DNA from: Alphaproteobacteria bacterium
GTDB lineage: Bacteria; Pseudomonadota; Alphaproteobacteria; Rs-D84; JAERRO01
Length of the DNA stretch: 64,000 nucleotides
NCBI GenBank assembly: GCA_016735395.1
Contig: JAERRO010000001.1
Span: forward strand, 2,428-66,427
Direction of reading: 5' to 3'
Shown in pieces: positions 19,575-63,433 of the stretch. The notes under the pieces are model-generated. The model saw nothing but the letters and a program-made list of their open reading frames with translations, did not search any database and was not told the DNA's origin. A program made the position numbers and the translations under genes. Positions within the stretch are counted from its first letter, which is position 1, and each line of letters begins with the position of its first letter.

Positions 19575-19579
19575 TCCTT

Positions 19580-22500
19580 TTATGTTAATTTAACTGTTTT
19601 ATTTTTTATAATATTATTTAAATTTTCGTTCTGTTTCTTCCCTATGTCTGCTAACCTTTCGTAGTTTTCTCTATCATATTTGGCAGTTTTTATAAATCTA
19701 TTTTGAGATTCATACAGAGCTTCAAGATCTTCAGAAGGATTTTTAGAATCTAACTGCAAAGGTTCATCAAGACTAGGATTAAATCTATATAAAGGCCATT
19801 GCCCAGAATTTACTGCATGTATCTGTTGAGATAAAGTCCCGCCGGTGTCTAAAGGGCCGTTGTGTTCTATACAAGGCGAGTGAGCGATAATTATCGCAGG
19901 ACCATCAAAAGCTTCTGCCTCTAGAATAGCTTTAATCGTTTGAGTAGGGTTAGCAAACATAGCTATTTGAGCGACATAGCAATTATTGTTTTGCATACTT
20001 ATAAAACCTAAATTTTTCTTTGCCGTCTTCTTCCCTGTGATAGAGAATTTGTGGGAAGCCGTTATAGGAGTAGCTTTAGACTGTTGTCCGCCTGTGTTCG
20101 CATAGACCTCGTTATCTAGCACAAGAATTTTTGAAGGAGTCTGAAGATGCAGAATGTGATCGATACCGGCATAACCGATATCATATGCCCATCCGTCTCC
20201 GCCGACTATCCACAATGATTTCTTTCGCAGATTGTCTATGACATTATGAAGCCGGACAGATGCCTCACCTAGAGAGTCTCTTTCCTTTTCCAGTATATCT
20301 TCCAGAGTTTTTATATCTTCTAGAATGATAGCCCTACTGTTTTCATCTTCCTGTTTATTATCTACGATTTTATCAGATATCTCTCCTAGAACATTTTTGT
20401 ATTTATCCCCTAGTTCTTTCAGAAGTCCTATAGCATATTGGTGCATCATATCTTTAGATATTTGCATACCCAAACCAAATTCTGCATTATTTTCATAGAG
20501 AGAATTCATCCAGGCTGGTCCTACTCCATTAGAATTTGAGTTGAAGGGAGTTATATTGTCTCCGGCAAACACAGAAGAACAACCTGAAGCATTCGCCATA
20601 ATTAGATTATCTCCTGTTAACTGTGTTAGAAGTTTTACTAGAGGTGTTTCACCGCATCCTGGACAGGCTCCTGAGAATTCGAATAATGGTTTAGCCAGTT
20701 GTGAATGTTTAGGCAAACTCATATTGAGTCTAGATTTATCTACTTCTTTTAATCCGTACAGAAAGTCGAAGTTATCCTGTTCTACTTTTCTTCTAATTTC
20801 GTCGAGAGGTTCCATTTTGATAGGAGGATTTTTATGATCTTCTAAAGGACAAGCTTTGATGCATAGATCACATCCAGTACAGTCCCCTGGTGAAACTTGA
20901 ATCGTGTAGTGAAGATTGTCTTCCTTACTGTCCGTAATATCGTTAGCCTTATATTCTTGAGAAACGAAATCGTCGGGAGCATCTGACCTTTGTTCTTCTG
21001 TCGTAACAGTAGAACGGATAGCAGAATGTGGACAAACAAAAGCACATTTTCCACATTGAATACAGGTATCGGGATCCCATATAGGCACTTCGTTACTTAA
21101 CCCTCTTTTTTCTAGTTTACTCAATCCCGCTGGAAACATAACATGTTTAGGTATCGCAGAAACAGGAATATCATAACCAGTCTCTGTCCGAATCTTTTCT
21201 ATGATTTGAACGGCAATCTTTTCTTTAGAATCACTAATAGAAGACTTAAAATCTGGTGCTTTACTTATCGTATCGTCTGAGACTTTTATTTCTATAAGTT
21301 CGTCTAAAGCTTTATCGATAGCAGAAAAATTGGCGATGACAATGTCTTCACCTTTGCTAGAATATGTTTTTTTGACGGTATCTTTAATCTTTTGAATAAT
21401 CTTTTTATTATCGACGAGTTCATTGACATAGAAAAAGCAGACCTGCATAATAGTATTTATCCGTCTGTTAAGACCGAATTCTTTTGCTATTTTAGAAGCA
21501 TTTATAACGAAGAGTCTACAGTTCTTGTCTTTAATAGTTCTCTGAATATCTTTCGGTAAAATATTGAGGACATCTTTAGTATCTCCGTCAACATTTATTA
21601 GTATAGTTCCGTTTTGTTTAATGTTTTTAAATATATTAGTAATTTGTACTAACTTAAAGAAATGACAGGCTATAAAGTCAGGTTGTTCTACAAAAAAAGG
21701 TGTATCTATAGGTTTATTCTTATCTATACGAATGTGAGTATGAGTGAGTCCTCCTGCTTTTCTAGCATCGTTGTTCGTCCTTCCGTTGATATAGACATTG
21801 TCGACCTCATTTATAATATTTAGACTATTAACTACAGAACCAGAAGTTCCGTCAGAGGCCAACCCCCAAATGATAGCTTCGAATCTGTCCTTGTGATTTA
21901 TAAGAAAAGAGTTATCTACCTCTAGAGATAAATTAGTAACATCGTCGTTGATACCTACTGTAAACTCTTGAGGAATATTCTCGCCGTTTAACATATCGAA
22001 GATGGCTTTAACATCTTTTGGAGAAAAGTTTTTACCTACAAGTCCATATCGTCCACCTGCTATATTTATATCTTTACGACCTCCTCTCCATAAAGCTGAA
22101 ACTACATCTTCGCATAGAGGTTCATAGACGGCTCCCATCTCTTTCGTCCTATCTAAAACGGCAATATTTTTAACAGATGAAGGTAATTTTTCTATTAAAT
22201 CGTCTATAGGGAAGGGTCTGTATAGTCTTATATTTATAACCGCGATTTTTTCTTCTCTGTTTAGATCTATATATTCCTTAATAGTTTGTATAGAAGATGT
22301 CATAGATATAATAATATTTTCAGCTTCAGGGTTCCCATAAAATTCTACTACTTCGTATTTTCTACCGGTCGCAGAATAGAACTTTTTCATCTCGCTTTTA
22401 ATAGTAGGAATAACATTTTGTACGATAGGATTAAGACTCTCTTTAATTTGAAAAGCCATATCGTGATTTGATATGCTACCTCTGACTTGAGGATTCTCGG

Positions 22501-23131
22501 GTTTTAAAGAATTAGTTTTAAAATTATTCATAGCTTCCCACGGATATAATTCTTTCATAGTTTCTTTTGACAATTCTATATAGGACTTAAATTCTGCTGA
22601 TGTTATATACCCATCGAAGAAGTGAAGCATAGGCATACTAGAAAGTAGTGTAGTAGTATGTGCTATAAAGGCCATATCTTGAGCTTCTTGAGTATCCGAA
22701 GATCCCAAAATAGAAAATCCCGTTTGTCTAGTAGCCATAATATCATTGTGAGAACAGAAGATAGAAGTAACAGGAGATGCAACTTCTCTAGCTGCCGAGT
22801 GTATAACCATAGGAGTAGCTTCACCCGCTATTTTGTACATCGTAGGAGGAAGTAAAATTAAACCTTGAGAAGAAGAGAAGGTAGTAGTAAGGGCTCCCAT
22901 CTGAATAGAACCGTGCATATATCCTGCAACTCCGACTTCAGATTGCATCTGTGTCATCGTAGGGACTATACCTAAAATATTCTTTTGTTTATCGGCTATT
23001 AGTAATTCTATCTTTTCTGGCATAGCAGTACTAGGCGAAATCGGAAAAATTGGGATAACATCGCTTAAAAAATGTGATACACGAGCTACTGCAGAACTGG
23101 TGTCCCCTAAAATATAATTTTTTAAAACCAT
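19580..23131 (-). CDS. nifJ: Pyruvate:ferredoxin (flavodoxin) oxidoreductase, copy 2 (tandem paralog)
   Basis: 1183 aa. CIQCGKCAFVCP, CTGCDLCIKACP and GGDGWAYDIGYAGIDH. Collinear with copy 1 and 5 bp upstream of it. Confidence 0.9.
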   Translation of the reverse strand: MVLKNYILGDTSSAVARVSHFLSDVIPIFPISPSTAMPEKIELLIADKQKNILGIVPTMTQMQSEVGVAGYMHGSIQMGALTTTFSSSQGLILLPPTMYKIAGEATPMVIHSAAREVASPVTSIFCSHNDIMATRQTGFSILGSSDTQEAQDMAFIAHTTTLLSSMPMLHFFDGYITSAEFKSYIELSKETMKELYPWEAMNNFKTNSLKPENPQVRGSISNHDMAFQIKESLNPIVQNVIPTIKSEMKKFYSATGRKYEVVEFYGNPEAENIIISMTSSIQTIKEYIDLNREEKIAVINIRLYRPFPIDDLIEKLPSSVKNIAVLDRTKEMGAVYEPLCEDVVSALWRGGRKDINIAGGRYGLVGKNFSPKDVKAIFDMLNGENIPQEFTVGINDDVTNLSLEVDNSFLINHKDRFEAIIWGLASDGTSGSVVNSLNIINEVDNVYINGRTNNDARKAGGLTHTHIRIDKNKPIDTPFFVEQPDFIACHFFKLVQITNIFKNIKQNGTILINVDGDTKDVLNILPKDIQRTIKDKNCRLFVINASKIAKEFGLNRRINTIMQVCFFYVNELVDNKKIIQKIKDTVKKTYSSKGEDIVIANFSAIDKALDELIEIKVSDDTISKAPDFKSSISDSKEKIAVQIIEKIRTETGYDIPVSAIPKHVMFPAGLSKLEKRGLSNEVPIWDPDTCIQCGKCAFVCPHSAIRSTVTTEEQRSDAPDDFVSQEYKANDITDSKEDNLHYTIQVSPGDCTGCDLCIKACPLEDHKNPPIKMEPLDEIRRKVEQDNFDFLYGLKEVDKSRLNMSLPKHSQLAKPLFEFSGACPGCGETPLVKLLTQLTGDNLIMANASGCSSVFAGDNITPFNSNSNGVGPAWMNSLYENNAEFGLGMQISKDMMHQYAIGLLKELGDKYKNVLGEISDKIVDNKQEDENSRAIILEDIKTLEDILEKERDSLGEASVRLHNVIDNLRKKSLWIVGGDGWAYDIGYAGIDHILHLQTPSKILVLDNEVYANTGGQQSKATPITASHKFSITGKKTAKKNLGFISMQNNNCYVAQIAMFANPTQTIKAILEAEAFDGPAIIIAHSPCIEHNGPLDTGGTLSQQIHAVNSGQWPLYRFNPSLDEPLQLDSKNPSEDLEALYESQNRFIKTAKYDRENYERLADIGKKQNENLNNIIKNKTVKLT

Positions 23132-29934: not shown

Positions 29935-30807
29935 TTATCTAGACATTCGTCCTAGACATCTATTATATATATTCTTATAATTATCTGCTGTAATATTTTC
30001 TTCGTTTAACTTTTTTATAATCCTGTAAATTATTTCGTCGAGGTACTCGTAGTCGACCGTTAGAGAACTCAATTTGTAGACGGTCGCCTTAAAGAAATCT
30101 AGCTCTTTATTAGTAGGGAAAACCGTATTTATATTAATATCTCGCAATTTTTGATTTTCTTTTATATAATCTATTACTCCAGATATCTCCTTCTCAATTA
30201 TATCTTTACTTATATAATTTTTTAACTGTTTTTCGTCACACTTATAAGAAAGATGACTGTACATAACAGAATGACTGGTAATTGCACTCAGTATTTTGAA
30301 GTATATACTTTTATGGTTAAAACTTGTATCATATAATGTATTTTGTTCTATATACATATGACATAATGCTCTTTCTAGTAATTTTATTATACCTTTAAAG
30401 CTAGATAATTTACTAATATCAATACTTATAGTTTTTCTAGAATATGATACACAGGCACCGTTTTCTAACGATTTTGTCAAATTTATCTGTTTCAAATTGT
30501 TATATAGATCTTTAAGTGTAGGATTCATAGACTTCGAAGAAAACATCTTTTCTAATTCCATTTTAATAATACTCTTATAATAAGACATCGTATTGTATAA
30601 TTCTGCGGTTAACTCTATGTCGGGGTTCCTTTCTATATAAGACACTTCTATGTCTCTCATACCTTTGACAGATAGTAGTCCTATATTATAATTTTTGTCA
30701 GTGTTCTTTTTAGAGACAGAGACTTCATTTTTTAGCAGTATATTTAACAGAGAAACTGATCCTAGACCGAGTTTAACCATCATATTCATTATATTAGTGT
30801 AAAACAT
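29935..30807 (-). CDS. Hypothetical exported protein, paralog A of a tandem pair
   Basis: 290 aa with hydrophobic N-terminus. Conserved blocks shared with 30824..31777: SKSMNPTLKDLYNNL / SSSLNPIFKDLYDNL, LCHMYIEQN / LYHMYIEKN, TVFPTNKELDFFKATVYKLSSLTVD / TVFPTQTELDFFKRTVYELGSLTVD. Confidence 0.55.
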   Translation of the reverse strand: MFYTNIMNMMVKLGLGSVSLLNILLKNEVSVSKKNTDKNYNIGLLSVKGMRDIEVSYIERNPDIELTAELYNTMSYYKSIIKMELEKMFSSKSMNPTLKDLYNNLKQINLTKSLENGACVSYSRKTISIDISKLSSFKGIIKLLERALCHMYIEQNTLYDTSFNHKSIYFKILSAITSHSVMYSHLSYKCDEKQLKNYISKDIIEKEISGVIDYIKENQKLRDININTVFPTNKELDFFKATVYKLSSLTVDYEYLDEIIYRIIKKLNEENITADNYKNIYNRCLGRMSR

Positions 30808-30823
30808 ATTTATCTCCTATATT

Positions 30824-31777
30824 CTATCTAGCTATTTGATCGCGATCGACGGTATTTTGAACTTTAACAAAAGCTCTCTCCCTACTACTTTTACCTAAAG
30901 TTATGTTATTCTCTTGTAGTTTCTCTATCACTAATACCATAACTCTATTGAGATGCTTCTCGTCGACTGTTAAAGAACCCAATTCATAAACGGTTCTTTT
31001 GAAAAAATCTAGTTCTGTTTGAGTTGGGAATACAGTGTCTATGGGTCTGCCAGACAATTTAGATATCTTTTTAGACTCCTCTATGATTCTCTCCATATTG
31101 ATATTCATTATATCGTTCGCTATCAACTTTTTAAAAGTCTCTTCACTGATATACTCAGAATAATGTTCGTACATAATAGAATAACTAGCAAATTCGTTCA
31201 ATGCATTCAAAAATATATTATTAGACTCAAATTTATGACGGTTCGGTATATTCTTCTCTATATACATATGATATAACTTCTGTTCTAAAGATCTCCTTAT
31301 ATATTTACCGTCGTGGCTCATATGTTCTGTATTTATAGTTATCACATTATCGGAGTATGTCATAAACTTCTTGTTATTTTTGTTCGATGTCACTTTTATC
31401 TCGTGCAGATTATCATATAGATCTTTAAATATAGGGTTCAAAGAAGAAGACGATAACATCTTGTCTATTTCTCTCATAACTATTTCTAGAGAGTCTAAAG
31501 TTTTTATGTACTTTTCTAAATGGTTAGTGAAAATCGGACCCGTAGGAGTATAAGAAACCGTTAACGGAGAATGTCCGTCAATAGACAATTTACCTGAAAA
31601 ATAGTTGAAGCTGTATCCCTTTTCGTAACTACTTTTGCTTTTTTCTTTCCCGTAGAATACCTTCTCTAATAGGGTGTCGCTACTTAATAATATCACACAA
31701 GCAGTACTACATAATAAGAAAAGACTTATCCCCATTTTATCCATTATATTTAATTTGACCATAATTATTCTCCACAT
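30824..31777 (-). CDS. Hypothetical exported protein, paralog B of a tandem pair. The likely start is the internal Met at 31762 (MVKLNIMDKM...).
   Basis: 317 aa; signal-peptide-like GISLFLLCSTACVILLS; paralogous to 29935..30807. RBS GGAGA 7 nt upstream of the 31762 ATG. Confidence 0.55.
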   Translation of the reverse strand: MWRIIMVKLNIMDKMGISLFLLCSTACVILLSSDTLLEKVFYGKEKSKSSYEKGYSFNYFSGKLSIDGHSPLTVSYTPTGPIFTNHLEKYIKTLDSLEIVMREIDKMLSSSSLNPIFKDLYDNLHEIKVTSNKNNKKFMTYSDNVITINTEHMSHDGKYIRRSLEQKLYHMYIEKNIPNRHKFESNNIFLNALNEFASYSIMYEHYSEYISEETFKKLIANDIMNINMERIIEESKKISKLSGRPIDTVFPTQTELDFFKRTVYELGSLTVDEKHLNRVMVLVIEKLQENNITLGKSSRERAFVKVQNTVDRDQIAR

Positions 31778-52220: not shown

Positions 52221-52832
52221 TTAGAAAATATCTTTTTCTGCAGTCGAGTCTAGTCTAGAAATAATCAAATTCCAGTCAATTAAATTATCTAAAGTAGATC
52301 GAACAAAATCTGCCCGCAAATTTTTGTAGTCTAAATAATAGGCATGTTCCCATACATCTATGACTAGTAAAACTACTCCGCCATACAATAGTGGGGTTTC
52401 GCCATTAAGTGTATTTTTTATTTCTAAAACATTTTCTTTATTGAGTACTAACCATACCCATCCGGAGCCAAAAAGTCCTAAAGAAGATTTTACGAACTCT
52501 TCTTTAAAGTTGTCTACGGAGCCGAAGTCTTTTACGATTAGAGATTTTAATTTACCGTCTTGAAAATCAACTGATTTCTTTAACTGTTTAAAAAACATTG
52601 TGTGATTGTAGTGTTGTCCTGCATTATTAAAAATGCCGACATTCTTATCGCTACTAGACTTCTTTATAACCTGCTCGATATCTAGCCCGACATAGTCCGT
52701 ACCTTCAATCAACTTATTTAGATTATTCACATATGTTTGGTGGTGTTTGCTATAGTGTATCTCTACAGTTTCCGCGGACATATACGGCGATAAATCGTCA
52801 TAGCCATAATCTAGTTTTGGTATCTCAAACAT
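52221..52832 (-). CDS. sodB: Fe/Mn superoxide dismutase
   Basis: FEIPKLDYGYDDLSPYMSAETVEIHYSKHHQTYVNNLN and DVWEHAYYLDY. Start taken at the Met with AAGGAG RBS (52832); the upstream in-frame ATG at 52856 is unlikely. Confidence 0.9.
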   Translation of the reverse strand: MFEIPKLDYGYDDLSPYMSAETVEIHYSKHHQTYVNNLNKLIEGTDYVGLDIEQVIKKSSSDKNVGIFNNAGQHYNHTMFFKQLKKSVDFQDGKLKSLIVKDFGSVDNFKEEFVKSSLGLFGSGWVWLVLNKENVLEIKNTLNGETPLLYGGVVLLVIDVWEHAYYLDYKNLRADFVRSTLDNLIDWNLIISRLDSTAEKDIF

Positions 52833-52901
52833 AATATCTCCTTTTCTACAAGTCATTTATTCTAAAATATAAAATTTTAGAAAAAATGTCAACCCACGAT
52901 T

Positions 52902-52984
52902 TATTCTAGAATTTCATACTTGATTGTTAAACTATAAGTTGATATAGTAGGAATAAATAAAACTACGATCGCAGGGAGGTAAAA
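52902..52984 (+). repeat. Copy 1 of a duplicated promoter/5'-UTR segment. It lies upstream of the 2TM-A gene and contains a TTGATT-17-TATAGT promoter at 52920..52948.
   Basis: 52908..52966 recurs at 54030..54088 with 2 mismatches. In copy 2 it is fused to a 29-bp piece of the sodB 5' coding region. Confidence 0.7.
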
Positions 52985-54001
52985 ATGGATAGAAAAAAGT
53001 TTGAAAATATAATATCACAAATTAATGATACATGTGATAAAATTCAAGAATTTGAAGATGTCACTAAACCTGAATTAATTAAAAAAAATAGATTTGGTGG
53101 AGGGTTTGGGGAGTATCTTTCAAGACATAGTTTTGATGTAAGCAATATTAAAAAGAAAATAAATAAACTATTAGATATAGACTTTAGTATCTTTTATGAT
53201 AATGCTGAGATATTAGCTATTCAAAACTTAATACAAATACTTTTAGATCACTGTAACAGATATAATAATGGTAATTCTGGTTATCTCTTTACAGAAGAAC
53301 ATTATAATAATACCTTTAAAAACAACAGATATGAAATAAATGAACTAATAGATAATTTACAGACAAAAAATTACGAGTTTGAAACCATTATCTCTATAGT
53401 TACTAATAATGAGATAAAAAAATTTTCTGATATAAACAAGATATACGAAAATATAGAGCAGAGTAAAACTGCATTAGAATCTATTAAAACAAATGAAAAT
53501 GCCTCGCAGATCGCTATGGAAAATATTAAGGTGGCTACGAATACCATTGGTGTAATAAAAAAAGCAGAGGGATTTGCAACTATAGCAGAAAAAAGTCATA
53601 AAAAGGCTCAAAAATATGAGTGGGTTATTTTTATATTTGCATTATTGTTGATGGGGCTAGTAGTACTAGCTTTTATAAAAATTGATAGCATATTTTTTTC
53701 TCGTTTAATCTTTTTAGTTCCTCTATTTACAGTTTCACTTATTTATCTCATTATATTAGAAAAAAGATACAGAATCAGGGCTTTTAAATACAAGGATCTG
53801 GAGGTTTCTATTTTATCTTTGTCGGCATATCTAGGAGATATTAGCGATAAACCTATGGAAGAATTGTCTGCTAAAGATACTTTTAAATTAAAGATGGCAG
53901 AATTTTATTATAAGCAGGTTTACGACGAGACTAAAATAAAGGAAAAAAATATTACGGAGCTTGTGACGAGTACCATAAAGAGTGCTAAAGGGACGACCTA
54001 G
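52985..54001 (+). CDS. Two-TM membrane protein A (soluble N-domain + 2 TM helices + C-terminal helix); candidate defense effector
   Basis: 338 aa. GGAGG RBS. TM helices WVIFIFALLLMGLVVLAFI and LIFLVPLFTVSLIYLIIL. Same architecture as 56034..57017. Confidence 0.5.
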   Translation: MDRKKFENIISQINDTCDKIQEFEDVTKPELIKKNRFGGGFGEYLSRHSFDVSNIKKKINKLLDIDFSIFYDNAEILAIQNLIQILLDHCNRYNNGNSGYLFTEEHYNNTFKNNRYEINELIDNLQTKNYEFETIISIVTNNEIKKFSDINKIYENIEQSKTALESIKTNENASQIAMENIKVATNTIGVIKKAEGFATIAEKSHKKAQKYEWVIFIFALLLMGLVVLAFIKIDSIFFSRLIFLVPLFTVSLIYLIILEKRYRIRAFKYKDLEVSILSLSAYLGDISDKPMEELSAKDTFKLKMAEFYYKQVYDETKIKEKNITELVTSTIKSAKGTT

Positions 54002-54103
54002 GCGATAAATCGTCATAGCCATAATCTAGAATTTCATACTTGATTGTTAAACTATAAGTTGATACAGTAGAAATAAATAAAACTAAATTTTGGGAGTTTC
54101 GTT
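54001..54103 (+). repeat. Copy 2 of the duplicated segment: a sodB 5' fragment (= 52787..52815) fused to the promoter region (= 52908..52966), lying upstream of mod. Promoter TTGATT-17-TACAGT at 54040..54068.
   Basis: The 29 bp ggcgataaatcgtcatagccataatctag is identical to sodB codons ~6-15. It is followed directly by aatttcatacttgattgttaaactataagttgata. Confidence 0.7.
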
Positions 54104-56032
54104 ATGGAAGATAATCTATTAAACAGTATTCTGGAGCTTTTCAAAAGTAAAAAACTAGAACAATATTACAACGGGGAAGGTCTTCTAACTAATAAGATAG
54201 AAGAGGATGCCCTTAAACTAGATTCTACATTACTAGAAGTTCTACTAGAAGACGAGGACACACAGAAGGCATTTTTTGCTACGGTAGGAGATATTAAAGT
54301 TTTCGATAAAATAAAATTTCAGTTATACATAAACAGTAAAGAATTTTTAAAAGATAGTTTTACTAAATACAAACAAAACATAGGATTAACAGACGAATAT
54401 GGTAAGGGGCTGAAACAAAATAATAATGTAGTTCTAAACTGGCCGTACAAAGATTGTATTTTGGAAGGCGGGCAAGATAAGGAAGACAAAAGCAGGAAAG
54501 AAGTTTTCTATAATGAAGTGTTGGCTCCCGAATATATAAATATACTTACAGACAAAAAGGCCTTTCATAATGCCGTTAGAGTTAAAGGCGAGGGCGACAA
54601 AGAAGAGCCTGTTACAGACTTTAATAGAAATGAGGACGGAACTATTACAGATAATTTAATGCTAAAGGGAAATAATCTACTAGTTCTACATAGCCTCAAA
54701 TCTCAATTTGCCGGCAAGATAAAACTAATTTATATTGATCCCCCTTATAATACTGGAAACGACGGCTTCAAATATAACGATAGATTTAATCATTCTAGCT
54801 GGCTTACCTTTATGAAAAATAGACTTGAAGTTGCTAGAGAACTTCTAGCCGACGACGGTGTTATCTTCGTTCAATGCGACGACAACGAACAGGCCTATCT
54901 AAAAGTCCTTATGGACGAAGTCTTTGGAAGGGCGAATTTTGTTATTAATTTAGTCTGGGAAAATAAGGAAGGCGGTGGGAAGTCCGATAGTATAACTTTT
55001 AGAAGAAAGCACGAATATATAATTACATATGCAAAAATAATAGATAACATAGAAATATATGGAAGAGATGTTGAGGACGTCGAAAGGTATAGATTATCTG
55101 ATATACATGAAGAGTATCGTGGAAAATATCAATTAATTAAACTAGATAGTGCGAGTCTAGGATATATAAAATCATTGGACTACTATATATTATCTCCAGA
55201 GAATACTCGTATATTTCCTAACAAAGATGACAACAAAATTAGTCGTTGGAGGTGGAATAAAAAGAAATTCGAATGGGGGGTAAAAAATGACTTTGTCGTA
55301 ATAAAAAAAGATAGAGACGATAATTGGGCTGTCTACACTAAACAATATCTAAATTGTGATAACAATGCAAATATTAAGAGAAGGACACTACAGCCAATAG
55401 GTGTAATTTCTAAATTTTCAAACACTCAATCTAATATACATATGAAATCTTTGTTCGGAACTGCTAAGTTTTCTTATTCAAAGCCAGAGCAATTAATTGA
55501 ATTTTATTTACAAATATCAACAAAGCCGGGGGATATAGTTCTAGATTTTTTCGCAGGGAGTGGGACTACGGCGGGGGTAGCTCACAAGATGGAGCGACAA
55601 TGGATCACTATAGAACAGATGGACTATATTCAGGACATCACAAAAGCTAGGCTGAAAAAAGTCGTAGATGGCGAACAGGGAGGTATCTCTAAAGCTATAG
55701 ACTGGAAAGGGGGCGGAGAATTCGTCTATATGGAAATGATAGAGAAAAATAATCGTTATTTTAATGAAATTATACAGTCGGAATCAGACGAAACTTTAAA
55801 AATACTATACAAACAAATTAAAGAAGAAACTTTCTTTAGATATGATATAGACCTAAAGGGACTAGATGCTCTAATGGACGACTCCATTTCCTTAAAACAT
55901 AAAAAGGAAGCCCTCACTCAATGCCTAGATAAAAATCACCTCTATTTGAACTACTCTAGCATCGACGACCGAAACTTTAATAAAGACGAAACCGTCTCTA
56001 ACCTCAATAAAAAATTCTACAAGGAGGTGTAG
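54104..56032 (+). CDS. mod: Type III restriction-modification methyltransferase (Mod), N6-adenine, beta class
   Basis: Motif IV IYIDPPYNTG precedes motif I DFFAGSGTTAGVA (permuted beta-class order); 642 aa. No simple-sequence repeat inside. Confidence 0.9.
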   Translation: MEDNLLNSILELFKSKKLEQYYNGEGLLTNKIEEDALKLDSTLLEVLLEDEDTQKAFFATVGDIKVFDKIKFQLYINSKEFLKDSFTKYKQNIGLTDEYGKGLKQNNNVVLNWPYKDCILEGGQDKEDKSRKEVFYNEVLAPEYINILTDKKAFHNAVRVKGEGDKEEPVTDFNRNEDGTITDNLMLKGNNLLVLHSLKSQFAGKIKLIYIDPPYNTGNDGFKYNDRFNHSSWLTFMKNRLEVARELLADDGVIFVQCDDNEQAYLKVLMDEVFGRANFVINLVWENKEGGGKSDSITFRRKHEYIITYAKIIDNIEIYGRDVEDVERYRLSDIHEEYRGKYQLIKLDSASLGYIKSLDYYILSPENTRIFPNKDDNKISRWRWNKKKFEWGVKNDFVVIKKDRDDNWAVYTKQYLNCDNNANIKRRTLQPIGVISKFSNTQSNIHMKSLFGTAKFSYSKPEQLIEFYLQISTKPGDIVLDFFAGSGTTAGVAHKMERQWITIEQMDYIQDITKARLKKVVDGEQGGISKAIDWKGGGEFVYMEMIEKNNRYFNEIIQSESDETLKILYKQIKEETFFRYDIDLKGLDALMDDSISLKHKKEALTQCLDKNHLYLNYSSIDDRNFNKDETVSNLNKKFYKEV

Positions 56033-56033
56033 G

Positions 56034-57017
56034 GTGGATAACAGAGAAAGACTTATAAAGACTATACAGAAAAAATTTTTTAGTAGGTTTGATATTTTTT
56101 ACGACCTAAACGACAGTGTATGGTTCGAGTTTGTAGATAAAGTTAGTGGTTATAGTCCTATATATGATTTTACGGATTACATTACACCGTATCTTATAAA
56201 GGGTATAGTAGATAAAATTGATACCACTACTCTCAAAGGCATAGTTAAACACATAGCTAACATTTGGGCTATAATAGACACATCTAGGTATAAAAACAAA
56301 GATTCATATTCAGGTAAAGATCAGATAATTTTTTATAAAGAAAATCTAAACGAACAAGACGACATAATAACAGAATTTAAAAAAATAAAAAGTTTATTGG
56401 AAAAATATAAATCTATTCTCGGAGAAAAGGATGAAGATCTGAAAGAAGAACATATGATAGAAACGAAATCATTCGCAGAATCATTCCTCGAGTCTAAAAA
56501 CAGTTATAATAGAAATATATGGATTATGTACATAGTACTACTTTTAACCTTAATAGCTATTGTGGGATTATATTTAATTGGGACTAAAACTTTCAACAAT
56601 TTAGATTTTATTAGTACAATAATATCACGGTTATTATTTTCTGCTCCGCTTATTTTCTTTGCATTTATTATAACGAAAAATCTATTTAACTTTCAATCTA
56701 TGTATGAAGCATACAACCATAAACAAAGGGTCGCAGAAGCTTTTTTAATTTTAGATCTAAAAATGGATAAAGAAAAAGAATGGCTTCTTAAAAAAACATT
56801 TCACGGGGGAAGCATCGAGCAAGGTCGCCTAGAACAAATTAACAAAGAGAAAGATCTATTATCTGGGACTCTTATGTCGGTAGTTCAAGAAAATCCTACA
56901 CATTTTTTAACAAAAGATAAATCTATGAAGAAATACCTAAAAGAACTAAAAGAAATTAAAGACCTGTTTATGGCTCCTAATATTATAGAAAGCAATCGAG
57001 TAGATAAAGGTAAATAA
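56034..57017 (+). CDS. Two-TM membrane protein B, embedded between mod and res; GTG start coupled to the mod stop
   Basis: GTG at 56034 lies 1 nt after the mod TAG, with AAGGAGG at 56021..56027. TM helices IWIMYIVLLLTLIAIVGLYLI and LLFSAPLIFFAFIIT. The stop overlaps the next ATG (TAATG). Confidence 0.55.
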   Translation: MDNRERLIKTIQKKFFSRFDIFYDLNDSVWFEFVDKVSGYSPIYDFTDYITPYLIKGIVDKIDTTTLKGIVKHIANIWAIIDTSRYKNKDSYSGKDQIIFYKENLNEQDDIITEFKKIKSLLEKYKSILGEKDEDLKEEHMIETKSFAESFLESKNSYNRNIWIMYIVLLLTLIAIVGLYLIGTKTFNNLDFISTIISRLLFSAPLIFFAFIITKNLFNFQSMYEAYNHKQRVAEAFLILDLKMDKEKEWLLKKTFHGGSIEQGRLEQINKEKDLLSGTLMSVVQENPTHFLTKDKSMKKYLKELKEIKDLFMAPNIIESNRVDKGK

Positions 57018-57030
57018 TGAATGATAATTT
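57001..57030 (+). repeat. 30-bp direct repeat, copy 1 (RBS + ATG + first 4 codons MNDN); copy 2 is at 57966..57995, the res start
   Basis: tagATAAAGGTAAATAATGAATGATAATTT vs taaATAAAGGTAAATAATGAATGATAATTT: 29/30 identical; the two flank the DUF3800 gene. Confidence 0.75.
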
Positions 57031-57856
57031 TATTATCTTTGTAGATGAATCAGGAGATCATAGCCTGTCTAAAATAAATCCTGAATTCCCTATATTCAAT
57101 CTAGTTTTTGTAGTATTCGAACAGAATCATTACTGTAATGTCGTTCTGCCAAAATTTAATCTACTTAAGTTAAAATACTTTAATAGTACTAATGTAATAT
57201 TTCACGAAAGAGAAATTAGAAAATCACTAAATAACTTTACAATACTAAAAAATTCCGTAGTAAGAAATAATTTTATAAATGATGTAGATACATTTTTAAA
57301 AAATATATCTTTCGAAATCATTACAATTAATTTTTTAAAAGAAAAAAATGCTAGGGAAGAAGTTAATATATACTCAAAATGTATGGAGGTAGCTCTTCCT
57401 ATTATTCAAAAATTTTTAGAAAAAAACTCTAGTTTAGAAAACAAAACTTTAATTACTTTTGAAGGGAGGGGGAAACAAGAAGATAGATCTCTAGAATTAG
57501 AATTCTTGAGGGAAACAAAGGACTATCAATATAACAACCTAAATATAGACATCATAACTAAACAGTCAAATTCTACCGGGCTACAGATCGCAGACTTAAT
57601 AGCTAGACCTATCGCAAATGAAATATTAAACTCGAAAAAAATAAACGATATTAAAGACTCTAATTGTGTAGGTTTCGGAATCGACAAAATAACAATAAAT
57701 GAAATGTTTCCTAAACCTTGCCACAATAGAGCTTTTGGATGTATAAAACCTAATATATATACTTTGCAAGTAATAATAAAACATGAAGTAATAAATAATA
57801 TGAAGGAAGATCTAAATTTTAATATAAAGCGAAAAAGGGCGGTTACACCACCCTAA
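57017..57856 (+). CDS. DUF3800-like protein
   Basis: N-terminal FIIFVDESGD motif and later GLQIADLIARPIA motif, as in the DUF3800 family; 279 aa. Start overlaps the stop of the 2TM-B gene. Confidence 0.45.
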   Translation: MNDNFIIFVDESGDHSLSKINPEFPIFNLVFVVFEQNHYCNVVLPKFNLLKLKYFNSTNVIFHEREIRKSLNNFTILKNSVVRNNFINDVDTFLKNISFEIITINFLKEKNAREEVNIYSKCMEVALPIIQKFLEKNSSLENKTLITFEGRGKQEDRSLELEFLRETKDYQYNNLNIDIITKQSNSTGLQIADLIARPIANEILNSKKINDIKDSNCVGFGIDKITINEMFPKPCHNRAFGCIKPNIYTLQVIIKHEVINNMKEDLNFNIKRKRAVTPP

Positions 57857-57981
57857 AGACGCCGATTGAGCATTCCCAATCCATTTATAATATATTATAT
57901 ACTATAAAAATTAAGAATGCAAGAAAAATAAAAAAAAGGGGACTTGACAAAGTCTAAAGATTAAATAAATAAAGGTAAATA

Positions 57982-60570
57982 ATGAATGATAATTTAGTAT
58001 ATTCTTTAAATGTCCTAGCAGGAGAAGATATTTTTAACCCTAGTGAAATTCCTGACTATATTACAAATAATGTCGCTCATAAACTGCGGGACTATCAAAC
58101 CGAAGCCCTAGCTAGATTTCGTTTCTATATCGACGATGATGGATACAAGAACAAAAAGAAGCCGATACATCTGCTGTTTCATATGGCTACGGGGTCAGGG
58201 AAGACTATCGTTATGGCTGGCTGTATTCTAGAACTATATAAAAAGGGGCATAGAAATTTCCTGTTCTTTGTTAACTCCGACAATATAATTGACAAAACTA
58301 AACATAATCTTCTATATCAAAATTCTAATAAATATCTGTTCAATAAAGATAAAATTATTATAGATAATAAGGCCGTTGCCGTAAAAGTCGTAGAAAATTT
58401 TAACGAAGCCGATGACGATTCTATCAATATATGTTTCAATACTATTCAAAAACTGCACGGAAACCTTATCAACACAGGCGAAAATGGAATTTCTACCGAA
58501 ACTTTTAAGGATACGAAAGTTGCTATAATATCCGACGAAGCCCATCACATCAATAGTATGACTAAAAAAGAATCCAAGGATGAACAAAACTGGGAGAACT
58601 CCGTTCTAGGTATTCTAAATGCGAATAATGACAATGTTATGCTAGAGTTTACCGCGACTATGGGTATGAAAAACGAGGCTATAGCAAAAAAATACAACGA
58701 TAAAGTTATATACGACTACACTTTCTTGAAATTTAATATAGACAAATATTCTAAAAATGTTTTTACTCTCGCCTCAACTTTCGATAATAACTATAAAATT
58801 TTACAGGCGATCGTTCTATCTCAATATAGACTAAAACTAGCAGTGCATCATAAGGTAAACCCGCTGGTTAAACCTGTCATTCTTGTGAAATCTAAATTTA
58901 TTAAAGATAGCACAAATGACTACAAAGAATTTTACGAGTTCTTGGAAAGACTAAAAGAAACAGATCTAGATAAAATTGAAAATGGCTCCGAGTCTAAAGA
59001 AATAAAATCTGCCTTTGAATTCTTCAAAAAAAATAAAATCACTAATGAAAATCTAGTCCTAGAGCTAAAGCAAGCCTTTAAAGTCGAAAATAGTGTTATC
59101 ACGGACTCAACAAAATCTACTCTTAATGCAAAGGTTCTACTCAATACACTAGAAGATGAAAAGAACAAAATTAGAATCATATTCGTCGTTAATCAACTTA
59201 ATGAAGGATGGGATGCTATCAATCTATATGACATCGTAAGGCTATATAATACTAAAGATAAAGGTAATGATGCTACTGTATCCGAGGCTCAACTAATAGG
59301 AAGGGGGGCTAGATACTGCCCCTTTACTACCAAAGACTCAGACGAAGATAAGTATAAACGAAAATTTGATGCCGATGCTAATAACGAACTTTCTATCCTT
59401 GAAGAATTCTACTTTCACTGCGATGATAATAGCAAATATATATCAGAGCTAAAGGCAGAACTAAAAACGCAAGGTATCATAGAAGAAGAAGTCCCCAACC
59501 TAGTTAGTATTGAGCTGAAAGAGAGTTTTAAAGAATCTGACTTCTATGAAAAAGGTTGTATTTTTCTAAATAAACAAGAACCTACTGATAAAGCAAAAAA
59601 CTTTAAAGAAGTCAAAAAACTTATAAAAAGTCAAGCATTTAAATACAATTCTACTATAGAAGATGGTAGGTCTAATAGTAAAAATAATCTATTAAAGGGT
59701 GATATTCTAAATGAAAACTCCAGTACAAAAAGAACAGAAACTTTAGATAAAGATGATTTTAGTAAACAGATTATTCAAACTGCTTTTGATAGAAATCCAT
59801 ACTTTAATTTTGATAAAATGAAAAAATACTGTGGGGGAAAAGTTGAGTCTATGAAGGACTTTATAGATCAAGTTATGGAGAATGTAAAAGTTGAGGTTAG
59901 ATATCAAGGAAACAAAGATACATTATTAACCCCGCGAGTGAAACTAGATATATTTTCTAATGTCCTAGGGGAAATCTCGAAAATTATGGAGAAGAATAAC
60001 ATAGAAAAGAGGGGGACGAGGGAATTCTCACATAAGAAAATATTAGAAATATTTATAGATAAAAAATTCAAGAGTAGTGGTACTGAAAAAGATATGAGGG
60101 GGCATAAGTGGTTCGCCTATGACAAAAATTACGGTACGAGTTTAGAAAATGATTTTATAAAATATATTATAGAAAAAAAAGAAGAGATAGAAGACAAATA
60201 TGCAGAGTTTTATCTATTAAGAAGTGAACGGTTTTTTAGGCTGTACGACTTCGAACAAGGTCGAGGATTTGAGCCTGACTTTGTTATGTTTTTTAAGAAA
60301 AATGGAAGTGAAGAATTTTCTAACCTACAAGTGTTTATAGAGCCTAAAGGTGGTCATCTATTAGAACATGATAAATGGAAATCTAAATTTTTAGAGAGCA
60401 TAAATAAAAATGTAGAATTTGGTGACGATCTATTTAATGATTCTAAAGATTTTAAAATAATAGGTCTCCCATTTTATGTTGACAATAAAGAACTACTGAT
60501 CGACGAAAAGAAGTTTACAGAACGAAAATTTAAAGAGGCTTTTAAAGAACAAATATTTAACAACGACTAA
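57982..60570 (+). CDS. res: Type III restriction enzyme Res subunit (SF2 helicase + C-terminal PD-(D/E)xK endonuclease)
   Basis: LRDYQTEAL; motif I MATGSGKT; motif II IISDEAHH; C-terminal nuclease FEPDFVMFF...VFIEPKG; 862 aa. Confidence 0.9.
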   Translation: MNDNLVYSLNVLAGEDIFNPSEIPDYITNNVAHKLRDYQTEALARFRFYIDDDGYKNKKKPIHLLFHMATGSGKTIVMAGCILELYKKGHRNFLFFVNSDNIIDKTKHNLLYQNSNKYLFNKDKIIIDNKAVAVKVVENFNEADDDSINICFNTIQKLHGNLINTGENGISTETFKDTKVAIISDEAHHINSMTKKESKDEQNWENSVLGILNANNDNVMLEFTATMGMKNEAIAKKYNDKVIYDYTFLKFNIDKYSKNVFTLASTFDNNYKILQAIVLSQYRLKLAVHHKVNPLVKPVILVKSKFIKDSTNDYKEFYEFLERLKETDLDKIENGSESKEIKSAFEFFKKNKITNENLVLELKQAFKVENSVITDSTKSTLNAKVLLNTLEDEKNKIRIIFVVNQLNEGWDAINLYDIVRLYNTKDKGNDATVSEAQLIGRGARYCPFTTKDSDEDKYKRKFDADANNELSILEEFYFHCDDNSKYISELKAELKTQGIIEEEVPNLVSIELKESFKESDFYEKGCIFLNKQEPTDKAKNFKEVKKLIKSQAFKYNSTIEDGRSNSKNNLLKGDILNENSSTKRTETLDKDDFSKQIIQTAFDRNPYFNFDKMKKYCGGKVESMKDFIDQVMENVKVEVRYQGNKDTLLTPRVKLDIFSNVLGEISKIMEKNNIEKRGTREFSHKKILEIFIDKKFKSSGTEKDMRGHKWFAYDKNYGTSLENDFIKYIIEKKEEIEDKYAEFYLLRSERFFRLYDFEQGRGFEPDFVMFFKKNGSEEFSNLQVFIEPKGGHLLEHDKWKSKFLESINKNVEFGDDLFNDSKDFKIIGLPFYVDNKELLIDEKKFTERKFKEAFKEQIFNND

Positions 60571-60653
60571 TCTTCTACTTTATTATCTCCTTGAAAAAAT
60601 TAAAGAATAATCTACTATTTATAAATCTTCTTATCTTCTACTAAAGGATTCTA

Positions 60654-61715
60654 ATGACAAATGTGAAAAATAACAGTTTAAATCTTTTTGATTATGCGAC
60701 AAGTGAACTTTCTCAAGATGCTTTTTTGTGCTGGCTACTAGCCCATCATCCTATATGTCAAAACGAAGATAGTGAAATAAAAGATAAAGATATTTCTCAA
60801 TGTGCAGAAAATTTATTAAATGAACTACTAGGAAAACATTCAACAGAACTAGGAAAAATAACAGAACTAGAAATAAAAAGGCAATATAAAAAGATTGATA
60901 TATTAGTGATAATCAATAAAAAATATGGACTAATCATAGAAGATAAAACCGATACATCTGAACACGGAAACCAATTGGGTAAATACTTTAAGGTTGTAGA
61001 GGAAAAGGGATTAATCCCTCTAGGAATATATTTTAAAACTGGTGATGAACTAAAAAGAGATGAAATAAAAAGAGATAAAATAAAAAGAGATGAAATAAAA
61101 AGAGATGAAATAAAAAATAAGAGTGATGAAGATATAGAATATACATATAAAACATTTTATAGAGATGAGTTATTAGAGGTATTAAAAAAACACAAAACAA
61201 AAAATGATATCTTTACTTCATTCTATAATAGGCTAGACAAATTTGAAGAAGATTATAAATCATACGAAAACAACAAAGTTGCCGATTGGTCTAGTAGAGC
61301 ATGGTCAGGATTTTTTCATAATAAACTATATAAAAATGATAGACAAAATTTTGATAAATTCTGGTATGGATATGTTCCAAATCGAAGTGGCGGTTTTCTA
61401 TGCTTCGCATGGGAGTTTAGATACATAGACAAAATAAAAGTATATTTTCAATTTGAAATAAGAAAAGTAGGTAATACGATGAATCCTATTTTAGTAGTTA
61501 AAACATCTTGTGAAAATAAACCGCTACCAGATGTAGCCCTCAATAAAATAGATGAATATATAGGTAAAGACTTGTGGAAGAAATTTAAGAGGCGGAGAAG
61601 TGATGGAAAAACATCTTCTAGGCTAATCTATATTTTAGAAGATCTTAATAATATGGAATATGGCGAGCTTATAGAATCTATTGAGAAAGCAACAAAATCT
61701 TTTGATTTAAAATAG
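60654..61715 (+). CDS. Hypothetical PD-(D/E)xK nuclease-like protein with an internal KRDEI tandem peptide repeat
   Basis: N-terminal SELSQDAFLCWLLAHHP and KKIDILVIINKKYGLIIEDKTDTSEH (D...E-D-K arrangement). Central LKRDEIKRDKIKRDEIKRDEIK encoded by 4 x 15-bp repeats. Confidence 0.4.
   Translation: MTNVKNNSLNLFDYATSELSQDAFLCWLLAHHPICQNEDSEIKDKDISQCAENLLNELLGKHSTELGKITELEIKRQYKKIDILVIINKKYGLIIEDKTDTSEHGNQLGKYFKVVEEKGLIPLGIYFKTGDELKRDEIKRDKIKRDEIKRDEIKNKSDEDIEYTYKTFYRDELLEVLKKHKTKNDIFTSFYNRLDKFEEDYKSYENNKVADWSSRAWSGFFHNKLYKNDRQNFDKFWYGYVPNRSGGFLCFAWEFRYIDKIKVYFQFEIRKVGNTMNPILVVKTSCENKPLPDVALNKIDEYIGKDLWKKFKRRRSDGKTSSRLIYILEDLNNMEYGELIESIEKATKSFDLK
61053..61112 (+). repeat. 4 tandem copies of a 15-bp unit AAAAGAGATGAAATA (one copy with G->A), in-frame within 60654..61715
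   Basis: Read directly: aaaagagatgaaata / aaaagagataaaata / aaaagagatgaaata / aaaagagatgaaata. Confidence 0.85.
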
Positions 61716-61773
61716 AAAGTATTTTGTTCTGTGTTTTTAGGATTTTTACTCTAGTATTACTATTGTTTTATAT

Positions 61774-62724
61774 TTAAGATTGAGAAGGATATTCACATAA
61801 TATAAAAAATCCATTTCTTTCAACTGGTTCTCCCAAATTTTTGCCTTCTCTATATTTTTCTGCAAAAGGTTTATGGGAACATGAAATAGTTATCTTATCG
61901 TTATCGATCTCGAACATAAAATTTCCTCCTTGATTGTTCGTAAACATATCTACTCTAGAGGAGTCTCTATATTTATTGTAATTGATACAAGCGGAGGGGG
62001 CGTTTCCTATCATCGTTATTCCAGGGTTTACTATCTCTAGAAATGAAAAGCCTCTACCAGAATCCCTCCCATGATGAGGAGCTATAAATAAATCTATATT
62101 TGAAATATCATTCTTATGTTTTTTAATTAAATGTTCCCAAGTCTTATCATCACTATCACCACAAAATAATATCTTAAAATTACCTGTCTTATATAAGATA
62201 ACTCCAGAACAATCATTCCAGTCTCCAATTATATCAGCCTTTTGTATTAAATCTTTGGTTGGAGACAAAATCTTTAATCCGTCTTCTATTATAAAGCTTT
62301 TTTTAACGTCATCTTGTAAAGAGTGAGCTTTTTTTAATAGTTCTTTATAACAGTCCCAATCTTTTTTGTCTGTGTCAGAAATTTTTTCATCTGTTTTCTT
62401 TGTTTTATATCCCCAAAAATTATCAATCCCGATACATTCTTTTAATGCCTTTATTCCTTTTAAATGGTCCATATCTGGATGAGTTAAAAAAAATCTAAAT
62501 ATGGCTTCGTCTTTATAATACTTTTTTAAAAAATCGATAGGATTTATAGGATGTTTTTTCTCTCCGAAGTTTCCTCTCGTAGATGCTGTGACTGTTTCCG
62601 ATAACTGGATAGAATCTTTTAAAGACTTCCCGTTGTTAATATCAATCATCGTTAGTCTACCAGAATAATGTTGTATTATTGAGCTATCTCCATTACCTAC
62701 ATTTAGAAAATATATTTTTGACAT
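61774..62724 (-). CDS. Metallo-beta-lactamase-fold hydrolase (ComEC C-terminal/Rec2-like family)
   Basis: LNVGNGDSSII, HxHxDH-type LTHPDMDHLKG, FCGD, APHHGR; 316 aa. 11 bp downstream of the membrane-protein gene. Confidence 0.55.
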   Translation of the reverse strand: MSKIYFLNVGNGDSSIIQHYSGRLTMIDINNGKSLKDSIQLSETVTASTRGNFGEKKHPINPIDFLKKYYKDEAIFRFFLTHPDMDHLKGIKALKECIGIDNFWGYKTKKTDEKISDTDKKDWDCYKELLKKAHSLQDDVKKSFIIEDGLKILSPTKDLIQKADIIGDWNDCSGVILYKTGNFKILFCGDSDDKTWEHLIKKHKNDISNIDLFIAPHHGRDSGRGFSFLEIVNPGITMIGNAPSACINYNKYRDSSRVDMFTNNQGGNFMFEIDNDKITISCSHKPFAEKYREGKNLGEPVERNGFFILCEYPSQS

Positions 62725-63242: not shown

Positions 63243-63317
63243 TATAGTGTCGTTACTATGATTGGTGGGGGCAGGGGGATTCGAACCCTCGACCTGCTGA
63301 TTAAGAGTCAGTTGCTC
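63243..63317 (-). tRNA. tRNA-Lys (anticodon CUU)
   Basis: Reverse complement GGGGGCATAGCTCAGTGGTAGAGCAACTGACTCTTAATCAGCAGGTCGAGGGTTCGAATCCCCCTGCCCCCACCA; perfect acceptor stem, loop CTCTTAA with U33/A37, CCA encoded; 75 nt. Confidence 0.8.
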
Positions 63318-63433
63318 TACCACTGAGCTATGCCCCCATAATTTACTTACCTATATATAGACCGTTTATAAATAATTTTCAATACTAGACGACTACTTAT
63401 TTTGATCTTCTATTTCAATAGATCTATTCTACT

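Follow-up and report, generated by a model that had tools for sequence, protein, structure and literature searches.

We analyzed a repeat that surrounds a single gene in a restriction-modification (RM) island of an uncultured alphaproteobacterium, using a stretch of 64,000 nucleotides (nt), hereafter the window, from a metagenome-assembled contig with JJV93 locus tags (JAERRO010000001.1 of assembly GCA_016735395.1, positions 2,428 to 66,427 of the forward strand). The gene, here termed 2TM-A (52985..54001, plus strand, as given by the list of open reading frames (ORFs) and its translation), codes for a protein of 338 amino acids (aa) with two transmembrane (TM) helices and lies between sodB and the type III methyltransferase gene mod. 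It is bracketed by direct repeats of about 85 nt that derive from the local sodB coding sequence and the sodB/2TM-A intergenic region, as a first-pass annotation of this DNA had proposed. We consider it somewhat probable that the arrangement arose by an insertion that made a long duplication of its target and was followed by a deletion at a short microhomology.

Anatomy and distribution of the repeat

The sodB gene (52221..52832, minus strand) codes for an Fe/Mn superoxide dismutase of 203 aa with the Pfam domains Sod_Fe_N and Sod_Fe_C, and its exact product is on record. Its ATG occupies 52832-52830, its ribosome-binding site (RBS) AAGGAG occupies 52843-52838, and 152 nt of intergenic DNA separate it from 2TM-A. 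A direct-repeat search of the window matched the left piece of copy 1 (52786-52814, plus strand, 29 nt, ending in TCTAG) to 54001-54029 at all 29 positions with a spacing of 1215, and the right part of copy 1 (52902-52965) to 54022-54085 at 61 of 64 positions with a spacing of 1120. Past the common TCTAG, the clean right block consists of 56 nt of the intergenic region (52910-52965, plus strand), of which 54 are identical in 54030-54085. Copy 2 is a single contiguous block of 85 nt (54001-54085, plus strand) made of a sodB fragment, the TCTAG junction and the intergenic piece, and it agrees with its two copy-1 sources at 83 of 85 positions. The two substitutions are a T>C change in the -10 hexamer (54065) and a G>A change (54072). 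The difference between the two spacings places 95 nt of copy 1 outside of copy 2, which can be read as 52815-52909 or equally as 52810-52904. The junction in copy 2 coincides with a 5-nt microhomology, TCTAG, that is found at both source ends. Specifically, this pentamer closes the first source piece (ATAATCTAG) and stands before the second (TTATTCTAG), where it occupies 52905-52909.

The 29-nt piece reads antisense to sodB from codon 7 to codon 16, of which the final one is partial, and sodB coding sequence makes up one third of the repeat. The absent 95 nt contain sodB codons 1-6, the ATG, the RBS and the best candidate for a sodB promoter, as established from the spacing difference, a promoter scan and the sequence itself. 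The first-pass annotation had correctly recognized that the skipped stretch bears the sodB start and RBS and had put the repeat in the right place, although its length of 92 bp for this stretch was 3 nt short and its coordinates (52787-52815 and an end at 54088) were off by 1 to 3 nt. Between the two copies there are 1,035 nt of unique DNA (52966-54000, plus strand, delimited with the ORF list and translation) composed of a 19-nt leader with the RBS GGGAGG and the 2TM-A ORF. The last base of the 2TM-A stop codon is also the first base of copy 2, with the junction at 54000/54001 followed by GGCGATAAA, while the left context of copy 1 at sodB reads TTTATTCTAGAATTTC and the right end of copy 1 reads AAAACTA at 52965. 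Downstream of the repeat the two units are wholly different, CGATCGCAGGGAGGTAAAA-ATG for 2TM-A and AATTTTGGGAGTTTCGTT-ATG for mod. Each copy is indeed followed by an RBS and an ATG (at 52985 and 54104), as had been annotated, but these differ between the copies and are located outside of the repeat rather than at its end.

When each piece was searched in the window allowing up to 3 mismatches, exactly 2 sites were found relative to 0.00 expected from 100 dinucleotide-preserving shuffles; for the left piece the number expected by chance is likewise 0. The three longest exact dispersed repeats of the window (40, 29 and 27 nt) all come from this event or from a second event at the nearby DUF3800 gene that is described below. 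Sensitive blastn detected no third copy in the window and, in further loci of the species that total about 30 kb, none outside of the homologous positions. The copy number of exactly two in the window is below the limit of 10 further copies that was applied to recognize a multi-copy family. Comparison of the window with itself also gave a similarity no shorter than had been annotated and no third copy in the window or the fetched loci. The repeat is real, it is not an artefact and, within the window and the fetched loci, it does not belong to a generic repeat family.

Both copies carry a promoter-like sequence. On the plus strand the promoter scan identified TTGATT-17-TATAGT in copy 1 (52920-52948), with a TG extension before the -10 hexamer, and its counterpart TTGATT-17-TACAGT is found in copy 2 (54040-54068), and these are the hexamers that the first-pass annotation had read. 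The best sodB promoter candidate lies on the minus strand, with TTGACA at 52892-52887, a spacer of 17 nt and TATTTT at 52869-52864. The repeat ends 17 nt past the -10 hexamer, or at about +10 of the predicted transcript. The 2TM-A gene and the RM operon thus each appear to own a copy of one putative promoter, of which the TACAGT version before mod is the weaker-looking relative to the TATAGT version before 2TM-A. In addition, the 29-nt sodB antisense piece is perfectly kept in the 3' untranslated region of 2TM-A, where a pairing with sodB mRNA is a doubtful possibility. A reading of copy 2 as a structured RNA was rejected, since it folds no better than its shuffles (z = -0.48). No terminator, no stable fold and no Rfam family were found in or around copy 2, the sole Rfam match being a chance match to a miRNA model below threshold.

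We compared the window with contig L082 of a second assembly (GCA_016735385.1, JJV96), contig L083 of a third (GCA_022702835.1, JAKGBL) and a Logan unitig, L001 (SRR13427716). Cluster look-ups traced this organism to JJV93, JJV96, JAKGBL and two Logan runs only. Across 9,130 nt to the left of the island L082 and the window are 99.87% identical, and L082 contains the same sodB, the same intergenic region, a 2TM-A allele and copy 2 before the contig stops at ATGGAAGATA. L083 begins in the intergenic region and contains a third 2TM-A allele followed by copy 2. In L082 and in L083, copy 2 and the RBS behind it (54001-54103, 103 nt) match the window at 100%, also at the two bases by which the copies differ. 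L001 agrees with the window at 100% as far as 52934, exactly one base short of the first 31-mer common to both copies, as would be expected if both repeat contexts exist in the SRR13427716 sample. This unitig, which ends inside the repeat, is the one that a look-up of sodB returned. Judged from these sequences, the structure predates the divergence of these strains or has spread among them. In searches for a strain with a single copy, a sodB-based scan of GTDB species representatives reached at most 51% identity, no record matched 2TM-A or mod exactly, and the 26-nt core of the intergenic piece had 0 matches in a scan of JGI metagenomes.

The DNA on both sides of copy 2 is variable among these strains. 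The 2TM-A alleles are only 64-74% identical as proteins, with several indels, while the flanking core is 99.87% identical. In the N-terminal part of the gene (52985-53620 in the window, 10001-10640 in L082 and 120-760 in L083) which makes up about two thirds of it, the synonymous divergence (dS) is 0.13-0.27 and the ratio of nonsynonymous to synonymous divergence (dN/dS) is 0.9-1.6. Hardly any variation falls in the TM helices, in the tail or in either flanking repeat. The variation is a mosaic, which suggests imported alleles that would be under diversifying or relaxed selection. After copy 2, where the window has the type III mod, L083 has a type IIG MmeI/Eco57I-like gene (HSDR_N plus methylase, 1233-2756). 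This gene and mod share only the RBS and ATGGAAGATAATCTA (encoding MEDNL), with a breakpoint after codon 5. JAKGBL keeps the 3' part of the restriction gene res and the PDDEXK_4 gene that follows it (L087, 96.5% identical to window positions 59273-61746), so that, given the short contigs, the type IIG gene may be an extra insertion upstream of mod and not a replacement of it. The right flank of the island is 99.28% identical between strains and is thus less conserved than the left flank.

Several contigs end at borders of repeats or variable segments, at window positions 52934 (L001), 54113 (L082), 52866 (L083), 55486 (L086, inside mod), 61630 (L084) and 61747 (L085). These ends point to strain mixtures in the samples and explain the fragmented assembly of the island, with the 85-nt repeat explaining the assembly breaks at sodB.

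Parallel duplications and the origin of the repeat

The locus contains two further inserts that are flanked by direct repeats. At the DUF3800 gene (57017..57856, plus strand, 279 aa; Pfam DUF3800, 1.8e-12) a 30-nt repeat occurs at 57001-57030 and 57966-57995 with 29 of 30 positions identical, which bears out the earlier remark that this gene has the same kind of signature. The left copy (57001..57030, plus strand) comprises the last five codons and the stop of the preceding gene 2TM-B (VDKGK-stop) followed by ATGAATGATAATTT, which is the start of DUF3800. The right copy (57966..57995, plus strand) comprises a useless fragment of the 2TM-B 3' end followed by the RBS and the first 14 nt of res. 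Thus, by way of its left copy, DUF3800 begins with codons duplicated from the first 14 nt of res. The other event is present in the JJV96 strain only, where a gene for a 230-aa S-adenosylmethionine-dependent methyltransferase (L082, 9131-9843) separates sodB from its promoter region. On either side of this gene stands a copy (20/20 identical) of the 20-nt sequence AACATAATATCTCCTTTTCT, which is the sodB RBS, the ATG and 2 more nt. Fused to the sodB start codon, the methyltransferase gene has a hairpin (CTGTCAGCTATTTTTGACAG) behind it, and the window has the 20-mer only once (52828-52847), as the empty site of the methyltransferase. In both of these cases the newcomer forms an in-frame fusion with the resident's first codons, and a full copy of the start region is left to the resident.

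The three duplications, of 20, 30 and 85 nt, have different lengths and mutually unrelated sequences. None of the three inserts has terminal inverted repeats of at least 7 nt, their ends share no motif longer than a chance 9-10-mer, and no integrase or transposase domain was found by Pfam and PADLOC in the island genes scanned. What they do have in common is their topology. Each time one copy runs on into the left neighbour and the other into the right neighbour, and each bears a functionless fragment of the other side, which indicates a target duplication made at insertion. We infer from this common topology that the same mechanism may lie behind all of these events.

For 2TM-A, the ancestor would have had sodB on the minus strand, the intergenic promoter and the RBS of mod, with a predicted empty-site junction in which AAAACTA is followed directly by AATTTTGGGAG. 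A piece of 1,035 nt, consisting of a short leader, an RBS and the 2TM-A ORF up to its stop, would then have entered at about +10 of the transcript, after the AAAACTA that ends at 52965. The insert would then have been flanked on either side by about 180 nt of target (52786-52965, composed of the whole intergenic region and 47 nt of sodB coding sequence). The distal copy would subsequently have lost 95 nt by deletion between the two TCTAG pentamers, or alternatively would have been made without these 95 nt by template switching. If kept distally, the lost 95 nt would only have driven antisense transcription into 2TM-A. The outcome would be that 2TM-A and the RM operon, which are unrelated units, stand in series at the sodB-divergent promoter region. 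Because nothing points to a transposase or integrase, the joining is assumed to have been illegitimate or replication-associated, with selection keeping those products in which both flanking genes are expressed. The order of events, the intermediate of 180 nt, the cause of the 95-nt loss and the activity of the promoters are all inferred.

Several observations support an insertion with target duplication. The sodB fragment in copy 2 is truncated and functionless, which indicates that the repeat is of local origin, and copy 1 is continuous with an intact sodB, which together with the fragment in copy 2 gives the topology of a target duplication. The DUF3800 and methyltransferase events show this same topology. 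Weaker support comes from the G+C content at third codon positions (GC3), which is lower for 2TM-A, 2TM-B, DUF3800 and the PDDEXK_4 gene (0.18-0.24) than for mod (0.32) and res (0.29), with values of 0.233 for 2TM-A and 0.323 for mod.

There are also several observations that weigh against this origin. The same end structure would result if 2TM-A and mod had already been adjacent (TAG, an 18-nt spacer with the RBS, ATG) and a promoter fragment had been copied between them. A 180-nt duplication plus a 95-nt deletion takes two steps through an intermediate for which there is no direct evidence. A genome with a single copy (sodB, promoter, mod) was not found in the collections searched, in which this organism is represented only by three assemblies plus Logan unitigs, and copy 2 is present in three of three assemblies. 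The direction of the methyltransferase event is ambiguous, in that the state of the window could be a precise deletion between the 20-nt repeats. Finally, the promoter calls are weak. The first-pass annotation had predicted that near-identical promoters drive 2TM-A and mod. The two sequences are near-identical, but promoter-like matches in this AT-rich region show no enrichment, with 37 relative to 30.8 +/- 5.8 in shuffles, and the copy-2 hexamers (8/12) are below the threshold of the promoter scan. A terminator after 2TM-A was not found, so mod may not need a promoter of its own.

An unlikely explanation, though one that must be taken seriously, is that 2TM-A was never inserted. Here 2TM-A and mod would be one old operon, and an 85-180-nt copy of the upstream region would have been placed between the 2TM-A stop and the mod RBS, for example by template switching during replication, giving the RM genes an internal promoter. 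The inferred ancestral TAG-AATTTTGGGAGTTTCGTT-ATG would be a normal tight operon junction, 2TM-A and copy 2 occur together in all three strains, and the composition of copy 2 from two non-adjacent pieces joined at a microhomology is what serial template switches would give. Duplicated promoters before unrelated genes are moreover common in bacteria (PMC3575422). Such a promoter capture leaves the two parallel events unexplained, however, since each of them has a whole ORF between target repeats and the first codons of the resident taken over, and one of them has its empty site in a strain that is 99.87% identical. The lower GC3 of 2TM-A relative to mod also weakly suggests that the two genes have separate origins. 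Somewhat less probable again is that the slot behind the sodB-divergent promoter once held either 2TM-A or the RM cassette and that these alternative alleles were later stacked in series. This could have occurred by a tandem duplication whose second unit was later exchanged through homologous replacement, or by illegitimate joining, behind 2TM-A, of an incoming fragment that starts inside the sodB of the donor, with a homology anchor on the right, and in either route each unit would retain its own copy of the common left flank. The variable slot after copy 2, the high dS of 2TM-A amid a nearly identical core, as if divergent DNA had been imported, and the 2/85 difference between the copies, which exceeds the 0.13% core divergence and would fit a donor origin of copy 2, all favor this possibility. 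Yet it calls for at least 2 events, or for an illegitimate joint at 54000/54001 that has only 1 nt of microhomology, and a strain with just one unit was not seen in the three assemblies. The 20-nt and 30-nt cases also fit it poorly, since duplicated pieces of this length are too short for a homologous flank from a donor.

Two other explanations carry very little weight. Site-specific integration produces direct repeats around a gene, and small promoter-bearing repeats such as Correia elements, which are at least named in PMC3575422, occur in other bacteria, so that copies 1 and 2 might be parts of a dispersed element (a mobile promoter family, or one resembling miniature inverted-repeat transposable elements (MITEs)) or of an attachment (att) site with no specific tie to sodB. 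We regard this as very improbable, as there are two copies in 64 kb and none in the further loci scanned outside of homologous positions, a third of the repeat is sodB coding sequence, there is no Rfam match, inverted ends are lacking, neither an integrase nor a transposase was found, and the other two duplications are unlike it in sequence. Readings as a transposon or an att site were rejected for want of terminal inverted repeats and of a shared end motif. It is even harder to believe that the metagenome assembler threaded strain variants serially. The samples are strain mixtures and several contigs (L001, L082, L083 and L086) do end at the borders of variable segments, but an assembler cannot create two substitutions between the copies and a unique 29+56 junction, and copy 2 is identical in three independent assemblies.

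If insertion with target duplication is indeed the origin, then the defence locus would grow gene by gene without transposases or integrases, with newcomers placed at start regions, and copying of the promoter or RBS of the target would ensure that nothing already present is silenced. The new ORFs are located at about +10 of the transcript (2TM-A) and at +5 (methyltransferase) and +14 (DUF3800) of the resident ORF, with the type IIG/type III swap at +15. In all three insertions the expression signals of the resident were copied, which indicates that newcomer and resident would both be expressed. It is a doubtful, though intriguing, possibility that a dedicated recombinase-free capture aimed at start regions builds stacked defence operons. 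One route to such capture would be template switching at encounters of replication with initiating RNA polymerase or ribosomes, and the ordinary alternative is random illegitimate insertion that is filtered by selection. The repeat also predicts that 2TM-A may be lost or amplified by recombination between the copies, which would provide homology for exchange as well.

Gene content of the island

In the 2TM-A protein a helical N-terminal part precedes the two TM helices (about residues 213-257) and a tail of 80 aa. It has no family match in Pfam, PADLOC, NCBIfam or PHROGs, and an exhaustive HMMER search of 1.84 billion representatives found 10 weak relatives, mostly matching the C-terminal TM and tail region and without informative domains. 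No relatives were found in JGI metagenomes or IMG/VR. The family is very rare. Its AlphaFold model (mean pLDDT 54.8) is not interpretable, and Foldseek found nothing in the PDB below E = 0.1.

The mod gene (54104..56032, plus strand) is preceded by a leader with the RBS GGGAG (54086-54103) and matches Pfam N6_N4_Mtase and TypeIII_RM_meth as well as PADLOC MTase_III (1.4e-170), with its nearest relative only 55% identical. It is non-homologous to 2TM-A, as the best BLASTP match between the two is at E = 0.11 and their domain content differs. The type III gene res (57982..60570, plus strand, 862 aa) matches Pfam ResIII and PADLOC REase_III (7.4e-124). The mod and res genes of type III systems are normally adjacent; here they are separated by the orphan 2TM-B and DUF3800 (56034-57856). 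2TM-B (56034..57017, plus strand) codes for 327 aa with two TM helices, and its stop overlaps the start of DUF3800 (TAATG). No homologues of 2TM-B were found in 5.8 billion proteins, its lone database match being itself. In architecture it is like 2TM-A, with a soluble N-terminal part, two TM helices and a tail of about 100 aa, and there is a faint similarity between the two proteins across the TM pair alone (E = 0.011).

After res follows the PD-(D/E)XK (PDDEXK_4) gene (60654..61715), which matches the PADLOC candidate system PDC-S26. This gene carries an in-frame 15-nt tandem repeat (GATGAAATAAAAAGA, encoding DEIKR) at 61044-61116, with 4.9 copies in the window and three units fewer in the JAKGBL strain (L087, about 1775-1805), which gives a variable-number repeat inside a nuclease-family gene whose cluster members are 353, 343 and 338 aa long. 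To the right of the island a conserved gene (61774-62724, minus strand) codes for a metallo-beta-lactamase (MBL)-fold protein with weak, sub-threshold similarity to the 6A-MBL anti-phage MBL component and to the ComEC metallo-beta-lactamase domain, and a tRNA-Lys(ctt) is located 540 nt beyond it (63263-63337). Elsewhere in the window there are two pairs of tandem paralogues, one at 16041-23131 (each of about 1,180 aa; DNA stretches of 75% identity recur at a distance of 3,539 nt) and one at 29935-31777 (290 and 317 aa, with 76% identity over 84 nt).

Comparison with known systems

Direct repeats of the target on both sides of an insert are also a feature of transposons, insertion sequences (IS) and att-site integration, although transposon and IS target duplications are typically under 10 bp and reach 19-26 bp for IS1630 (PMC2853133). 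Unlike these systems, the duplications at this locus measure 20, 30 and 85-180 nt. There is no terminal inverted repeat of at least 7 nt, no transposase and no copy number beyond two that would identify an IS, transposon or MITE, and neither the recombinase nor the common core site of site-specific integration is present.

The locus also resembles the minimal mobile elements of Neisseria. Saunders and Snyder reportedly described such an element in 2002 as a slot between conserved genes that holds strain-specific whole-gene cassettes, often RM genes. Likewise, the island has conserved flanks (99.87% on the left and 99.3% on the right), differing content and no mobility genes, with the methyltransferase present only in L082 and a type IIG gene in L083 at the position of the window's type III mod. 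Flanking target duplications are not, however, part of the definition of minimal mobile elements. Their exchange is presumed to go through the homologous flanks, and natural transformation is not known for this uncultured bacterium. Minimal mobile elements of Neisseria are at least mentioned by name in PMC3082526.

Another likeness is with putative mobile promoters (Matus-Garcia, Nijveen and van Passel, 2012, PMC3575422), in which a near-identical upstream sequence stands before two non-homologous genes, as it does before 2TM-A and mod, without involvement of a known mobile element and with an expected rewiring of transcription. That source cites E. coli rnk-citT as a promoter capture by duplication. 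Unlike those cases, the copies here are 1.1 kb apart, bracket one gene and include coding sequence of a neighbour. The screen used there (at least 80% identity over at least 50 nt within -150..-50) would also pass over this repeat. Relative to 2TM-A the 56-nt block spans -75..-20 and relative to mod it spans -74..-19, which puts only about 25 nt inside the screening window, despite identities of 54/56 and 29/29. A mechanism proposed for rRNA operons (PMC3457768, 2012) gives the same end product, namely direct repeats with DNA between them that is missing from the other allele, but it needs a homologous insert-free allele, which was not observed here.

The closest comparison is with insertions that make a long target duplication (Furuta, Abe and Kobayashi, 2010, PMC2853133), a class found at RM loci of several bacteria, occasionally with gene fusion, that has been described from genome comparison only and whose mechanism was never shown experimentally. 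Nobusato et al. (2000, Gene 259:99) likewise appear to describe an insertion with long target duplication. There are some important differences. The insert here is one gene without a family match and not an R+M pair, the RM genes being outside of the repeats, so that no R and M homologues are found in the insert, and one of the copies has an internal 95-nt deletion. All three assemblies carry both copies around 2TM-A, and an empty site is seen only for the 20-nt methyltransferase event. The sister duplications of 30 nt (29/30) and 20 nt (20/20) are borderline to or below the >30-bp cut-off of that study, which the repeat at 2TM-A (85 nt, 83/85) exceeds. On the other hand, the insert at 2TM-A (1,035 nt, one ORF) is well within the limit of <20 kb without mobility genes. 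As in that class, short DNA without mobility genes lies between long direct repeats, the repeats copy the local target, vary in length and sequence from case to case and sit at or in RM loci, and the insert is at times fused in frame to the resident gene. With three putative target-duplicating events and a start-proximal cassette swap within 6 kb, the locus would be a compact natural example and not a new principle.

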